Under the pieces are notes generated by a model. That model was not told where the DNA came from, made no database searches, and worked only from the letters and a program-made list of their open reading frames with translations. A stretch of 63,725 nt of DNA, filler included, from Candidatus Huberarchaeum crystalense (GTDB lineage: Archaea > Huberarchaeota > Huberarchaeia > Huberarchaeales > Huberarchaeaceae), in the NCBI GenBank assembly GCA_002790315.1. It is 5 parts of 5 records of this genome, joined end to end, with 100 filler letters (N's around TTAATTAATTAA, not from the genome) between each part and the next. Parts side by side here need not be neighbours in the genome. Positions count along the whole stretch, not along the records: positions 35,198 to 40,071 come from PFUW01000009.1; 4 more parts are not named here. One strand, given 5' to 3'. Positions 35,098-40,171 of the stretch are shown here, in pieces. Within the stretch, counting starts at the first letter, position 1, and the number at the start of each line of letters is the position of its first letter. Made by a program: the position numbers and the translations under genes.

Positions 35098-35197
35098 NNN
35101 NNNNNNNNNNNNNNNNNNNNNNNNNNNNNNNNNNNNNNNNNTTAATTAATTAANNNNNNNNNNNNNNNNNNNNNNNNNNNNNNNNNNNNNNNNNNNN
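35098..35197. other. artificial scaffold linker
   Basis: N44-TTAATTAATTAA-N44. Confidence 0.97.
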
Positions 35198-35287
35198 CCC
35201 AGAAATAATAAAAAAAATAATGAAAAGCATATAATATAATATAATATAATATAATATAATATAATATATATTACTTAAAACAATAAA

Positions 35288-35614
35288 ATGGTTTTACCTG
35301 TATTTTTTATCCTCAATGGTGGTAGAGCAATCTCAATAGCAATAGGAGCAGGTACAGCACTTGCCCGCTTCGTCGCAAAAAATCCCAAAATAATTGGAAG
35401 CACTCTTTCAATTGAAGCAATATCCTCTGCAATCCAATCATATATTACCACCGAAAAAGAAAAAATTGACATAGTAAATGAAATAGGAAAAGACAACCCC
35501 CAGATCAGGGCTGATTTGTTCAAAAATGTATTTTCCCCTGATAATAATGTAATATCAAACATTATTCTTTATTTAGTCTTGCTCTTAATTATATATTATC
35601 TTTTGAAAAAATGA
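35288..35614 (+). CDS. element membrane protein
   Basis: Ala/Gly-rich N-terminus and C-terminal TM anchor IILYLVLLLIIYYLLKK. Confidence 0.7.
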   Translation: MVLPVFFILNGGRAISIAIGAGTALARFVAKNPKIIGSTLSIEAISSAIQSYITTEKEKIDIVNEIGKDNPQIRADLFKNVFSPDNNVISNIILYLVLLLIIYYLLKK

Positions 35615-35802
35615 AAATAGTTGTAAACAATCACTCGCCAAGCACAAAGACATCCGATTTGCTACTAATCCTTTTTAGTATCACATATTTTATTGCCGGG
35701 CTTTGTTTTGCCCAAGATTTGTTTGCCTGTGCAATATTTTTGGTCGCTGTCGTTTGCATTATCTTAATAAAATATTTAAAATTAAGTGAAAATGAAAAAT
35801 AA
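35611..35802 (+). CDS. element two-TM protein
   Basis: Two hydrophobic helices; overlaps both neighbours. Confidence 0.6.
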   Translation: MKIVVNNHSPSTKTSDLLLILFSITYFIAGLCFAQDLFACAIFLVAVVCIILIKYLKLSENEK

Positions 35803-35923
35803 TGATAAAGCAATAATTGCCGGGGCGGGTGCAGTATTAGCCTATTTATATTTGGAAAAGAAGAAAGAAAAAAAAACAGATATCTCCGATGTGTCTATAT
35901 CCCCCATGGAATTTTACGCCTAA
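35792..35923 (+). CDS. element 43-aa TM-anchored peptide (not in ORF track)
   Basis: MKNNDKAIIAGAGAVLAYLYLEKKKEKKTDISDVSISPMEFYA. Confidence 0.65.
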   Translation: MKNNDKAIIAGAGAVLAYLYLEKKKEKKTDISDVSISPMEFYA

Positions 35924-35998
35924 TAATTATTAATAACTTAATACTATAAATGTAATATATAATATGTAATATATAATATAAAAATAAAATAAAATAAA

Positions 35999-36358
35999 AT
36001 GCCAAAGTTTAGAATAAGCATAAGTGTTTGGAATAATTCGGGCGCGACTGTAACAGCACATGTGGGTGCTTCGCTTGTCGGTGTTACTGATTGGGCTGAA
36101 TACTACAATACGTCAGAGGACATCAAACGAGTATTTCCTCAGGGAAGAACCAACCTCGTTCGGTACCTCAGCACTGATTTGGGAAAGTATCAAAAATACA
36201 ACCTCGTTGTGGCTCTCTGGGAAGGTGAAAAAACCATAGGGACTGGTATCAAATATGCCACTGTAACACTGAAAAATGCTGTTGAAAAAAAAAAAAAAAA
36301 TAAAGTAAATATGACGATGTCAGTAACTGGTTTCATACCCTCTTCTTTTACGGTCTAA
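35999..36358 (+). CDS. element beta-rich Ig-like protein (candidate spike or fibre)
   Basis: FRISISVWNNSG...KYNLVVALW strand pattern resembles CARDB/Ig domains. Confidence 0.6.
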   Translation: MPKFRISISVWNNSGATVTAHVGASLVGVTDWAEYYNTSEDIKRVFPQGRTNLVRYLSTDLGKYQKYNLVVALWEGEKTIGTGIKYATVTLKNAVEKKKKNKVNMTMSVTGFIPSSFTV

Positions 36359-36388
36359 TAAAAAAAATAAAATAAAATATAACATAAA

Positions 36389-36898
36389 ATGGTATACAGA
36401 AAAGCAAAACAAAAGGTTCGAAGAGCACATTCACGCTCAAAAACTCTTTTTGGTGGCGACTTCCTCAAAAATCCTTATTTTGTTGGAATTGTGGCTGGTG
36501 CCGTCAAAAACGCATTAGCGGGAAAAAAAATAATTGATGTTGAGAACATCAAAAGTAGAATTTCAAAAATGGACGGCACAAATCCGCTGATTTTGTTAAG
36601 TGCAGGAATATTGGCGAAAAATCCGCTAATTACTGCAATCGGCTTGTTCGGAATTGTTGACCCACCTGATGATGCGGAAAAAAAGGAAGAATATATAGGA
36701 TATTCAAATGTCGGAGAAACGCAAGAAAATGCCGAATATTCAAATGTCGGAGAAACGCAAGAAAATGCCGAATATTCAAATGTCGGAGAAACGCAAGAAA
36801 ATGCCGAATATTCAAATGCCGGAGAAACGCAAGAAAATGCCGAATATTCAAACATCGGAGAAACGCAAGAAATAACAAAAAAAAGGTTTGCGTATTAA
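36389..36898 (+). CDS. element protein with basic N-terminal arm, hydrophobic core and acidic repeat tail
   Basis: MVYRKAKQKVRRAHSRSK arm; 12-aa EYSNVGETQENA repeats. Confidence 0.7.
   Translation: MVYRKAKQKVRRAHSRSKTLFGGDFLKNPYFVGIVAGAVKNALAGKKIIDVENIKSRISKMDGTNPLILLSAGILAKNPLITAIGLFGIVDPPDDAEKKEEYIGYSNVGETQENAEYSNVGETQENAEYSNVGETQENAEYSNAGETQENAEYSNIGETQEITKKRFAY
36701..36871. repeat. 36-bp coding tandem repeat, about 5 copies
   Basis: tattcaaatgtcggagaaacgcaagaaaatgccgaa repeated with few substitutions. Confidence 0.95.
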
Positions 36899-36958
36899 AA
36901 TAATTTAAAAAATAAATAAAAAAATATAAAAAATATAAATAAAATAAAATAAAATAAA

Positions 36959-37327
36959 ATGACAGCAACACCCTATAAAATATATGTTGTTTTTGAAAAC
37001 ACGGCGGTTGAAGGAGAATATATCCCTTTGTTGTATACGGCAAGTGATGTGGTCGGTGCAAATGCGGTACTCCCGTCTGACAGTGATATATATACTCTTC
37101 CGACAGGTACCAGCACGGGAGAACAAAAAGTATATCGGTTGCGTGAGGTAATCGTCATCGGCACATTCACGGACACAACATGTGCAAATATTTGGGCGAA
37201 TGATTTAAAGACTGAACATCTTATTATTCATGATATCAACACGAAGGACACGGTTGACCGTCAATTCAAAGTCATCAAGTTGTTTTTCAATGGAGGCACC
37301 TCAATCAGATTGAAGTTGGGGGCATAA
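36959..37327 (+). CDS. candidate single-jelly-roll major capsid protein
   Basis: 122 aa, beta-strand pattern throughout, follows a basic-arm protein, ends LFFNGGTSIRLKLGA; the fold is inferred. Confidence 0.5.
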   Translation: MTATPYKIYVVFENTAVEGEYIPLLYTASDVVGANAVLPSDSDIYTLPTGTSTGEQKVYRLREVIVIGTFTDTTCANIWANDLKTEHLIIHDINTKDTVDRQFKVIKLFFNGGTSIRLKLGA

Positions 37328-37334
37328 AAAAAAC

Positions 37335-37628
37335 ATGACCCAAAATATATGCACCCAATTGATATCGGCGGGGGATAAAAAGATAGTATTAGAACAACCA
37401 AGCGCTTTACAACGGATTTTTTTCTCCGTACGCGTCTTAGCCAGTACAACGGCGTGGTATGATGTCAGGATGTCATTCGATGAGCCCAAATTTTGTTCTT
37501 ATTATTCACTGAACGGGCCGAGGAAATATTTTGAGGCCGAGGGTGTTGACATATTTCAAGGGAATATTTGGATTTTTAATAGCACGGATACAGATTTGTT
37601 TCTGACTATGATGGAAATTTTGCATTAA
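37335..37628 (+). CDS. element beta-rich 97-aa protein (candidate minor capsid or vertex protein)
   Basis: RIFFSVRVL, YDVRMSFD, GNIWIFN, LFLTMMEIL strands; 7 bp downstream of the capsid candidate. Confidence 0.5.
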   Translation: MTQNICTQLISAGDKKIVLEQPSALQRIFFSVRVLASTTAWYDVRMSFDEPKFCSYYSLNGPRKYFEAEGVDIFQGNIWIFNSTDTDLFLTMMEILH

Positions 37629-37792
37629 ATATATTAAATACTTCGTCGACGAATACAAATATATTATTGGGGAAGTGTTTCTATGTTCGCTTCCCCCCCT
37701 ATCCTAAACATAGTAATATCAATATCCTAATAATATAACAATAATATAATAATAATATAATAATAATATATAATTTTTAAACATAGAAAAAG

Positions 37793-38917
37793 ATGGCAAA
37801 GATAGGGAGAAGATATTCTTGGTTTAACAACAAATATGCAGGGACATCTGAATATCCACCTACGCCTCGACAATATCAAGAATTATGTTCTATTGCGAAT
37901 GATAAGGATAACTACTCACATCCTAAAAATACGGTTTCTCCGATAAATATAATATCAAAAGGTTTTTTTCAATCCGAAGCACAAAAAGCCCTTCAAAACT
38001 CACAGATTGAAAAAGCGTTTGAAATCGCCGAGCAATACATCAAGACATCAAAAAGAAAATTTTATCGGTTTTTTGATAATGAGACAAAAAAAATCATAAT
38101 CTCAAAGCAACTCAACCGTTTTGACGAGGCATATGTTTTTTCTGCGAAGCGGAAACTCAAAGGGCTCCGAGAGATTGGACATGGGCATGATATCATGCAC
38201 ATCACCCTCACAATTTCTCACGCAGAAAACGCAGATTATGTCGAAAAATATCGGCAACTTAAGGATAAATTTAATGATTTTATGTGCTATTTGAAGCGAG
38301 TAATAAAAAAAAACATAGACTATATCTCGACATATGAAGTTACGCAAGCAAGCGACGGGCGATACCATCAGCACATCCACATCATCATCATTGGGGTTGG
38401 GTTTCTCCCGAAAAAAACAATATTACTGCTATCCGCAAAATGGAAAAAAATAACAAACTCCCGATATATCCACTTCAAATACATTTCAAAAAATCGAAAT
38501 GTCAACATTTTTTCCTACGCCATGAAGTATATAACAAAGGAATTTGCGAACATAAATCTCACAACAGTTCTTCTTTTTTCCTTGAGAGGAAAGGCATACA
38601 CGATGTCTCAGCGCCTTTCCCAACTCATATCAGAAAAAATAGTAGTGGTAGGTGAAAAAAAATATAAATATATTGACTCATTTGAAGCACAGGATATTTT
38701 CTGGGGTTACAACATTTCCGATTACGATCCGGCTTCTCTCACCTTTTTCTTTTCTTTTATTTCTGCGGAAGAAAAAATGAAACTTCTTTCCGAAGGCACC
38801 CAACAAGCGGAAGCCACGCAGAAAAAACAAGAAGACCGACGAAAAATGGATGAAAGAGATATCGAAGCGAACAAAAAAAACGCAATTAATATAAAAAATA
38901 TGATAAAAATAAAATAA
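37793..38917 (+). CDS. rep: rolling-circle replication initiator, HUH endonuclease with two catalytic tyrosines
   Basis: Motif I HITLT (~38198), motif II YHQHIHIII (~38366), motif III YAMKYITK (~38516), in the canonical order. Confidence 0.9.
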   Translation: MAKIGRRYSWFNNKYAGTSEYPPTPRQYQELCSIANDKDNYSHPKNTVSPINIISKGFFQSEAQKALQNSQIEKAFEIAEQYIKTSKRKFYRFFDNETKKIIISKQLNRFDEAYVFSAKRKLKGLREIGHGHDIMHITLTISHAENADYVEKYRQLKDKFNDFMCYLKRVIKKNIDYISTYEVTQASDGRYHQHIHIIIIGVGFLPKKTILLLSAKWKKITNSRYIHFKYISKNRNVNIFSYAMKYITKEFANINLTTVLLFSLRGKAYTMSQRLSQLISEKIVVVGEKKYKYIDSFEAQDIFWGYNISDYDPASLTFFFSFISAEEKMKLLSEGTQQAEATQKKQEDRRKMDERDIEANKKNAINIKNMIKIK

Positions 38918-38924
38918 AAACACA

Positions 38925-39308
38925 ATGAAAAACATAGGAGCGGGCGTGAGCGTAGTTCTCGCGCAGGAAAAAAAACAAGAAGAAGAAGGAGAAGTAAAGA
39001 AAGAAGAAGAAGAATATATTCCGATGAGAAATGAGATGATATTCTTCCTGCGGGAAGACCCAAGCATTCAAATATCCGCCGTAGGGGAATGGTGCGAAAA
39101 TGCCCGAGGCGATATAGTGAAGGAGGCAGACATATATTTCCTTCATATCCTGACGGGTCAAAGGTGCGAGAGTGCATGGTCGTGTCTGGTCGGCATGTCG
39201 GAACCTGATGAACACGCAACCGAAAAATGGGAAGCACTCTGCGAGCGTATCGAAGAACTTGAAAACCTCGAAGTGAATGTATGCGACGAGAAACAAGTCG
39301 GGCTATAA
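38925..39308 (+). CDS. element hypothetical acidic protein
   Basis: Directly follows rep on the same strand; E/K-rich N-terminus. Confidence 0.6.
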   Translation: MKNIGAGVSVVLAQEKKQEEEGEVKKEEEEYIPMRNEMIFFLREDPSIQISAVGEWCENARGDIVKEADIYFLHILTGQRCESAWSCLVGMSEPDEHATEKWEALCERIEELENLEVNVCDEKQVGL

Positions 39309-39343
39309 AAAACAAAAAACAAAAATAAAATAAAACAAACAAG

Positions 39344-39763
39344 ATGAAAAACCCAAAAGCAATTTTGGACACCTCCACTGTTGGAGTGTATGAACTAAAA
39401 AAATATATTTTGCGTCGCTCGATGAAAAAAATTGATGCTATTTTGCGGAAGACCCGCCGAATACGAAAAATGACAGCTGATTTCTACGAGCGAATTGATG
39501 ATGTGCCCCCGCTCGAAACGGACGAACAAGCAGAGCGACACGCAAAAAAAATCAATGATTTTCAGCGGGGAATAGGGAGAAGGTGGGGTGAAATATGGCT
39601 TGACAAAGAGGAAATTTACGCCACAATCGCCACGCTTTATGAGCTCGCGGATGTCCGGAAAAAATATCCTGACATCGTGGAGCCTGAAAGTATACCTTCC
39701 TGGGTGGATATTCGTCGGGAAATTGAATGCCGGATGAAAAAAACGATCTGTGCGAAAGAGTAG
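39344..39763 (+). CDS. element hypothetical helical protein
   Basis: 139-aa charged ORF, co-directional with rep. Confidence 0.6.
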   Translation: MKNPKAILDTSTVGVYELKKYILRRSMKKIDAILRKTRRIRKMTADFYERIDDVPPLETDEQAERHAKKINDFQRGIGRRWGEIWLDKEEIYATIATLYELADVRKKYPDIVEPESIPSWVDIRREIECRMKKTICAKE

Positions 39764-39995
39764 GCTTGCGAAAATGACATATAAATAGTATATGAGAGGG
39801 TGTGTCGCCGTATCATCCGCCCGATACGCCGACCCCCTCGTCATTCGCAATACTTTTACTTTTTTTTGGTTACTTTTTTTTGGAAAAAAAAGGAACATAA
39901 TAATAACAATATAATAATGATATAAAAGAATTATAATAATATTTATATAGTATCTTAATAGTATCTTATTAATAATTTGATAATAACTTAATAAA

Positions 39996-40071
39996 ATGTT
40001 TAATTTTCTAAAAAAAAACACCGTAGATGAGAAAGAAATCATCGAAATTAAAAAAAAAATTGCCTATATTG
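39996..40071 (+). CDS. element ORF start, truncated by scaffold end
   Basis: MFNFLKKNTVDEKEIIEIKKKIAYI runs into the linker. Confidence 0.5.
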
Positions 40072-40171
40072 NNNNNNNNNNNNNNNNNNNNNNNNNNNNN
40101 NNNNNNNNNNNNNNNTTAATTAATTAANNNNNNNNNNNNNNNNNNNNNNNNNNNNNNNNNNNNNNNNNNNN
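40072..40171. other. artificial scaffold linker
   Basis: N44-TTAATTAATTAA-N44. Confidence 0.97.

Follow-up and report, generated by a model that had tools for sequence, protein, structure and literature searches.

A 5-kb circular, Rep-encoding element binned with DPANN-type archaea, with two adjacent predicted jelly-roll proteins: a candidate small virus

SNJ1 (Simuloviridae) is an isolated archaeal virus that combines single-jelly-roll (SJR) capsid proteins with a replication initiator (Rep) of the HUH type in a genome of 16-19 kb, and it possesses a packaging ATPase (excerpt of PMC12642351). SPV1 and FLiP have no packaging ATPase (excerpt of PMC8812541). The Charybdis elements are linked to Poseidoniales, accumulate in the vesicle/small-virus fraction and encode predicted structural proteins (excerpt of bioRxiv 10.1101/2025.08.03.668216). 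The subject of this report is a 5,049-bp circular element with an HUH-type Rep of its own, a near-complete copy of which lies in a 63,725-nucleotide stretch of DNA from Candidatus Huberarchaeum crystalense (assembly GCA_002790315.1); this whole stretch is called the window below. At roughly even odds (a probability of about 0.5), the element is a new small virus of DPANN-type archaea, known here from its genes alone. A preliminary description of the window had interpreted three consecutive open reading frames (ORFs) as a basic-arm protein followed by two candidate jelly-roll proteins, and knew of no isolated archaeal virus pairing such a capsid module with this type of Rep. SNJ1, as excerpted, is such a virus, so that what would be new relative to it is the size of 5 kb and the unrelatedness of the sequences.

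The three ORFs were recovered exactly as described (36389-36898, 36959-37327, and 37335-37628, the last two separated by 7 nt). They are located on a separate contig (C17, window 35198-40071, 4,874 bp), which belongs to a 453-kb, 78%-complete genome bin of 42 contigs. The window is a chain of contigs whose joints consist of N44-TTAATTAATTAA-N44 linkers (e.g., 35098-35197 and 40072-40171), and genes on opposite sides of a linker are without physical linkage. The features that carry the argument are the following.

35198..40071, + strand: whole contig, a near-complete copy of the 5,049-bp circular element, 175 bp short, with every gene on this strand
36389..36898, + strand: o169, 169 aa, with a basic N-terminus, a hydrophobic middle, an acidic tail of 12-aa repeats and a conserved KKRFAY end
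36959..37327, + strand: o122, 122 aa, predicted single jelly roll, candidate major capsid protein, the most conserved gene of the family
37335..37628, + strand: o97, 97 aa, predicted 8-strand jelly-roll or cupin-like protein, candidate vertex or receptor-binding protein, the most variable gene
37793..38917, + strand: Rep, 374 aa, predicted HUH rolling-circle initiator, the largest ORF of the element

Relatives of the element were collected by a metagenome scan with o122, in which 603 stretches were matched, 248 of them encoding relatives; the best 80 were kept and yielded 78 loci (88-100% identity). In the locus L005 and nine others (10 of the 33 loci longer than 4 kb), the first 40 nt recur after 5,029-5,309 nt, L044 comprises two full turns of 5,055 nt, and three loci carry exact terminal repeats of 113-127 nt. 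As the window contig is, in addition, 100% identical to L005:209-5082 over 4,874 nt, the element is a 5,049-bp circle of which the window copy lacks 175 bp. Its eleven genes lie on a single strand in the fixed order o95-o108-o63-o45-o119-o169-o122-o97-Rep-o127-o139, which is unchanged wherever the genes were detected among 26 loci of at least 5 kb, with the exception of the rearranged L043 and L055. No integrated copies were found: the four longest contigs (L044, L026, L029, and L030) proved to be concatemers, some with mixed strains, and have no uncovered flank of more than 300 nt at either end.

All eleven genes are real and under purifying selection. The Nei-Gojobori ratio of nonsynonymous to synonymous changes (dN/dS) ranges from 0.07 to 0.35 over 197 to 2,890 sequence pairs per gene, being lowest in o122 (0.07), intermediate in Rep (0.13) and o169 (0.24), and highest in o97 (0.35, with a dN of 0.39). 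The median identity to the window copy follows as 91% for o122, 87% for o139, 78% for Rep, 72% for o169, 64% for o119, and 45% for o97. An origin in chance frames of AT-rich DNA or in faulty assembly, which the low G+C content (35%), the short ORFs, the metagenomic source and the chimeric concatemer contigs might bring to mind, is refuted by these ratios, by 694 and 36 homologous proteins found, and by the recurrence of the same circle in many contigs, with 79-84% of its sampled words present in 20 DNA runs labelled as groundwater or aquifer metagenome. Four RNA runs contained 28-38% of the sampled words, a figure that is not used as evidence of expression.

Conservation extends well beyond the close relatives. 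A whole-library search assigned o122 to only 20 clusters at 50% identity, and the eight distant clusters that were looked up are all on contigs of at most 5,069 bp. The locus L089, a 4,013-bp contig binned with an Altiarchaeales metagenome-assembled genome (MAG), encodes five homologues recognized by BLASTP, namely those of o108 (37% identity), o169 (51%), o122 (32%), Rep (39%), and o95 (34%). The position of o119 is occupied there by a 119-aa ORF, and a 106-aa gene, which lies behind Rep on the opposite strand, can be aligned over its full length to the profile of o97 (hhalign E 3e-4, probability 40%). Neither o127 nor o139 was detected in L089. A set of small membrane and beta proteins thus accompanies the Rep over large distances, and two genes are accessory.

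Both o122 and o97 were predicted as all-beta monomers by AlphaFold2. For o122, modelled from an alignment of 21 sequences reaching down to 27% identity, the fold is confident (predicted local distance difference test, pLDDT, 85.4; predicted template modelling score, pTM, 0.80; five models at 81-85). For o97, modelled from 26 sequences, the sole usable model of five has a pLDDT of 73.2 and eight strands, the other four reaching 41-62. The models predict eight-stranded beta sandwiches of jelly-roll topology, and the earlier view of two small jelly-roll proteins is supported by all-beta models and jelly-roll structural neighbours. The best solved structural match of o122 is an SPV1 capsid chain. 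The jelly-roll neighbours found in the structural comparisons include CBM6/35/36, BclA, and C1q/TNF. The matches of o97 are jelly rolls, among them the PM2 spike P1 (at 7.5) and STIV A223 (at 6.8). Neither protein has a hydrophobic N-terminus, and that of o122 is not basic. Sequence variation in o122 is mostly confined to one loop (residues 48-56), while that in o97 is spread across strands and loops between invariant islands.

Residues 94-103 of o122 (window about 37238-37267) form the most conserved motif of the family, N..T..RQF, in which N94 and Q102 are invariant. The motif overlaps the only low-confidence stretch of the model (pLDDT below 50 at residues 97-105) and may represent a contact site that becomes ordered only in an assembly. 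A complex prediction with three copies of o122 gave scores of 0.09 and 0.03 against a mark of 0.42; run without controls, it weighs neither way.

The main alternative is a small rolling-circle plasmid of DPANN-type archaea, whose membrane proteins and lectin- or TNF-like jelly rolls would alter the envelope or the contact with a partner cell without forming a virion. We regard it as somewhat unlikely. The CBM6/35/36, BclA, and C1q/TNF neighbours would suit such a plasmid, as would the hypervariability of o97, which a surface protein might also show; a circular, extrachromosomal 5-kb replicon without any relative in IMG/VR is likewise what a plasmid could be. It leaves the export of o122 and o97 unexplained, because neither has a hydrophobic N-terminus usable as a signal sequence, and the most conserved gene finds its closest structural match in a capsid protein. 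The five non-accessory genes shared with L089 at identities as low as 32-51% also speak against it, such a large fixed module being generally unusual in a 5-kb plasmid.

A further argument comes from variants in which the replication gene appears to be exchangeable. In 7 of the 78 loci (L043:4522-5439 on the minus strand, L051, L052, L055, L016, L033, and L045), o97 is followed on the opposite strand by a non-homologous gene for a 305-aa zinc-ribbon protein that matches no known family. The 374-aa Rep was not detected in L043 and L055, and the 305-aa gene may be an alternative replication module; its apparent substitution for Rep in some variants, with the structural genes kept, speaks against a plasmid. 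A 5-kb circular replicon with its own initiator fits the two-module plan of small viruses better than that of plasmids, because its tiny membrane and beta-sandwich proteins form a deeply conserved set, because a frozen jelly-roll gene without an export signal finds its best structural match in an archaeal capsid protein, because the jelly-roll neighbour of that gene evolves fast, and because the replication gene seems exchangeable.

If the element is a virus, the three ORFs would constitute the core of the structural module of an extrachromosomal, 5.05-kb circular, Rep-encoding virus or virus-like element. The most conserved protein, o122, would be the major capsid protein, and its lack of a hydrophobic N-terminus would be in keeping with assembly of the shell in the cytoplasm. 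Probably co-transcribed from 7 nt downstream, and evolving several times faster, o97 might form an exposed vertex or penton that meets the host surface. With its basic N-terminus, o169 could act on the DNA, and its hydrophobic segments would be embedded in a lipid layer, to which o108, o63, and o45 might contribute further components. The result would be the SPV1 layout in miniature, with the genome under a membrane and the membrane under a protein shell. The genome would enter without a packaging ATPase, which is not required because SPV1 and FLiP, by the excerpted account, lack one. The membrane-containing layout is the least secure step of this scheme; the virus reading also has an open variant, in which a particle of single-stranded DNA (ssDNA) would lack a membrane and its jelly rolls would be tangential.

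The earlier description of o169 as a protein with a basic arm and hydrophobic segments agrees with its composition: eight of residues 1-25 are Lys or Arg, and moderately hydrophobic stretches span residues of about 29-45 and 66-90. Of the last 74 residues, 17 are Asp or Glu, and this part includes the tandem repeat, whose unit differs in copy number between relatives, as indicated by homologue lengths of 144, 156, 168-169, and 181 aa that ascend in steps of one 12-aa unit. The copies are more alike inside one genome than between genomes, i.e., they are homogenised. The L089 homologue has 120 aa and no tandem repeats. An assignment of o169 to Tn916-Xis was rejected, as the match lay under the cut-off with no passing stretch.

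With three or four membrane proteins encoded in 5 kb and a small jelly-roll subunit, the element might also be a satellite or a vesicle-borne replicon, the DNA of which leaves the cell inside membrane vesicles or a helper virus's capsid, with the jelly rolls as decorations or adaptors rather than as the shell. The Charybdis elements of about 4.6 kb provide an analogy, as far as the excerpt of bioRxiv 10.1101/2025.08.03.668216 goes. Unlike these, the element has its own Rep, no helper was identified, and the dN/dS of o122 (0.07) suits a shell former better than an adaptor; we judge this explanation quite improbable.

Several results weigh against a virus. As a major capsid protein, o122 would be a small subunit (13.5 kDa), and 5 kb would not fit into a T=1 shell built from it. 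No sequence relatives of the element were found among phages (INPHARED), among plasmids (PLSDB) or in IMG/VR, and apart from Rep, its proteins match no known virus, plasmid, Pfam or PHROG family. In particular, neither o122 nor o97 has a match in Pfam or PHROGs, o122 has none in INPHARED, and Rep has none in INPHARED or PLSDB. Scans of IMG/VR with o122, Rep, the 21-sequence o122 alignment, P0174, P0169, and A3 returned no relative. Foldseek searches of PDB and BFVD with the two models gave nothing at E <= 0.001, and profile searches of PDB sequences gave two matches to designed proteins and two weaker ones, none to a virus protein. The fold of o97 is taken from one usable model of five. The link to a DPANN-type host is by binning only, in two separate archaeal bins; the G+C content of the element (35.3%) differs from that of the bin (31.5%); and a search for a spacer link to the MAG found tandem repeats only in a crude repeat scan and no match with blastn-short.

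Other searches were also without result. When Pfam and PHROGs were searched with all 21 members of the o122 alignment, only single-member matches at E >= 0.013 were obtained. The ESM Atlas contained no usable match for o122, and a GTDB genome scan with o122 found none beyond the window's own genome. The alignment matched 0 of 100 other archaeal genomes, a count of little weight, as these are kin at the domain level only. The 973-aa repeat protein P0170 was rejected as a relative, its short match being repeated across a bacterial-type repeat domain. Full-text searches of the literature, covering main texts, found no description of a 5-kb Rep-encoding element with jelly-roll proteins.

Rep matches PF23343 (REP_ORF2-G2P) with 35.2 bits, above the gathering cut-off of 27.8 (E 1.6e-8), and Rep_1 with 28.1 bits, below the cut-off of 33.2 (E 1.7e-6). 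All three motifs of HUH initiators are present and invariant in five sequences down to 39% identity: motif I (H136-I-T-L-T140), the HUH motif (Y191-H-x-H-I-H196), and the motif of the catalytic tyrosine (Y242-x-x-K-Y246-x-x-K-E250). Its tyrosine pair, with a spacing of three residues, presumably recalls superfamily-1 initiators such as phiX174 gpA. The HUH Rep family is shared with plasmids, and the Rep_1 match (1.7e-6) may be counted in favour of the plasmid alternative. A profile search of Rep against PDB sequences returned no solved structure.

The remaining features of the contig are as follows.

35288..35614, + strand: o108, membrane protein of 108 aa, hydrophobic segment at the N-terminus and transmembrane segment at the C-terminus, as suggested by hydropathy
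35611..35802, + strand: o63, 63 aa, two transmembrane-like segments by hydropathy
35786..35923, + strand: o45, 45 aa, a single short hydrophobic helix, as read from sequence
35982-36001 and 36365-36379, + strand: (AAATA)n runs, the former abutting the ATG of o119, the latter 10 nt upstream of the ATG of o169
35999..36358, + strand: o119, 119-aa basic protein that reads as all-beta or beta-rich
36700..36872, + strand: tandem repeat in o169, 36-nt (12-aa) acidic unit, 4.8 copies with 97% matches
36937..36961, + strand: (AAATA)n run abutting the ATG of o122
38925..39308, + strand: o127, acidic 127-aa protein, accessory
39344..39763, + strand: o139, basic 139-aa protein, accessory
39764..39850, + strand: long G+C-rich hairpin in the AT-rich spacer 3' of o139, candidate replication origin
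39996..40071, + strand: 5' part of o95, 95 aa, the remainder lying in the 175 bp absent from the window contig

The hairpin behind o139 is a candidate rolling-circle origin. The DNA fold of 39764-39900 reaches -27.1 kcal/mol (z -5.98), with none of 200 shuffles as good, and the hairpin itself is almost unchanged across 10 distinct variants, its conservation exceeding that of the coding regions. Between o97 and Rep, a short hairpin, GGGGAAGTG...CGCTTCCCC (window 37640-37730; -8.7 kcal/mol, z -2.1), might act as a terminator or as a second element of the origin. The (AAATA)n sequence has six matches in the 63.7-kb window, all six on this contig, against 0.46 expected, and L089 has a similar A-rich run (about 1352-1381) ahead of its o122 homologue; the structural genes may share this sequence as a strong promoter or leader.

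Among the smaller genes, o108 has a median identity of 76% in related loci and a dN/dS of 0.20, and o45 is kept in 44 near-full copies with a dN/dS of 0.17. For o119, the ESM Atlas returned only its own clusters and a weak lead to an SlaA-like cluster (score 0.89). The whole ORF of o95 is found at L005:5007-5294.

The small genome of the bin suggests a DPANN-type archaeon. The 16S rRNA of the bin is fitted best by the archaeal model (1,234 bits), a neighbouring contig encodes an alanine-tRNA ligase and an archaeal NusA-like protein, and nothing in the genome collection is closely related to the bin. On a separate host contig (window 28935-31869, minus strand), four successive ORFs of 357, 170, 187, and 206 aa each have a short hydrophobic N-terminal segment, and are by eye reminiscent of archaeal pilin-like or secreted proteins.

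To our knowledge, few viruses have been described for DPANN archaea outside the hypersaline lineages. If the element is a virus, it adds a group overlooked by standard virus-detection catalogues, given that it has no IMG/VR relative, and would offer a very small system in which to test how a shell of jelly rolls was united with a membrane and with a replicon of the rolling-circle type. Its frozen shell gene beside a fast-evolving neighbour in one operon would be useful for the study of host recognition in uncultured symbiotic archaea. A more far-reaching version, which we consider rather unlikely as a whole, is that DPANN-type archaea have a so far unrecognised virus family, widespread in aquifers and microdiverse there, of minimal (5-kb) icosahedral members with a portoglobovirus-like SJR shell, a hypervariable jelly-roll vertex, a small lipid core and an HUH Rep. 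Were it true, these would be the smallest membrane-containing viruses known, and a living example of the proposed step from a rolling-circle plasmid to an SJR-capsid virus at the portoglobovirus/helvetiavirus root. Even as a plasmid, the element would be abundant and well defined among the replicons of ultra-small archaea, and with its candidate origin and its Rep it could provide a vector backbone.

Comparison with known systems places the element close to several of them. Portogloboviridae, as described in PMC8459092 and excerpted from PMC8812541, resemble its proposed layout in their small SJR capsid proteins (SPV1 VP4 and VP10), one forming hexamers and one pentamers over a lipid layer, as well as in the circular genome and the lack of a packaging ATPase. 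They differ in a genome comprising some 20 kb of double-stranded DNA, a VP1 nucleoprotein core and the lack of a replication initiator (PMC8459092), while the element has 5,049 bp, 11 ORFs, and an HUH Rep. Halopanivirales (SNJ1, HCIV-1, and P23-77) have two adjacent SJR genes; the element has two adjacent predicted jelly rolls, and in L089 the o97-like gene stands elsewhere and inverted. Their genomes of 16-19 kb or more encode an FtsK/HerA-type packaging ATPase, whereas no ATPase family was found in the element (10 window ORFs and o95). Moreover, the two capsid proteins of these viruses are regarded as related through a duplication (excerpt of PMC8812541), whereas o122 and o97 are unrelated by profile, their treatment as duplicates of one gene having been rejected (hhalign probability 0.1%).

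With the initiators of PF23343 and Rep_1, the element shares the Pfam match over the gathering score and the conserved HITLT, YHxHIH, and YxxKYxxKE motifs, although its Rep has no close relative in the phage, plasmid, and IMG/VR collections. Inoviruses and plectroviruses are set apart by a Zot-like morphogenesis ATPase and a filament coat module, no such family being present in any ORF of the element. Pleolipoviruses (Pleomoviria) possess a large membrane fusion (spike) protein and a matrix protein (excerpt of PMC13595969), whereas no ORF of the element other than Rep exceeds 169 aa. The Charybdis elements, again by the excerpt, are similar as circular archaeal elements of about 4.6 kb with about 10 unknown genes, a conserved, presumably structural module of the jelly-roll type and a variable locus. 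They differ in being marine and present in IMG/VR, in having no recognisable Rep and in their double Greek-key hallmark protein, whereas the element has an HUH Rep, occurs in groundwater runs and lacks relatives in IMG/VR.

CRESS-DNA viruses and Microviridae exhibit the same two-module plan, in which a small circular genome encodes an HUH Rep and a jelly-roll capsid protein. In CRESS-DNA viruses, the Rep contains an SF3 helicase and the capsid protein an Arg-rich arm, whereas the Rep of the element contains no helicase family and the basic arm resides on a separate protein, o169. The proteins of the element match none of the capsid families of the two groups, and its membrane proteins have no counterpart there. 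There is about an even chance that the element is an SJR-type small DNA virus with a rolling-circle Rep, one that departs from the defining features of Portogloboviridae, Halopanivirales, CRESS-DNA viruses, inoviruses, and pleolipoviruses alike.

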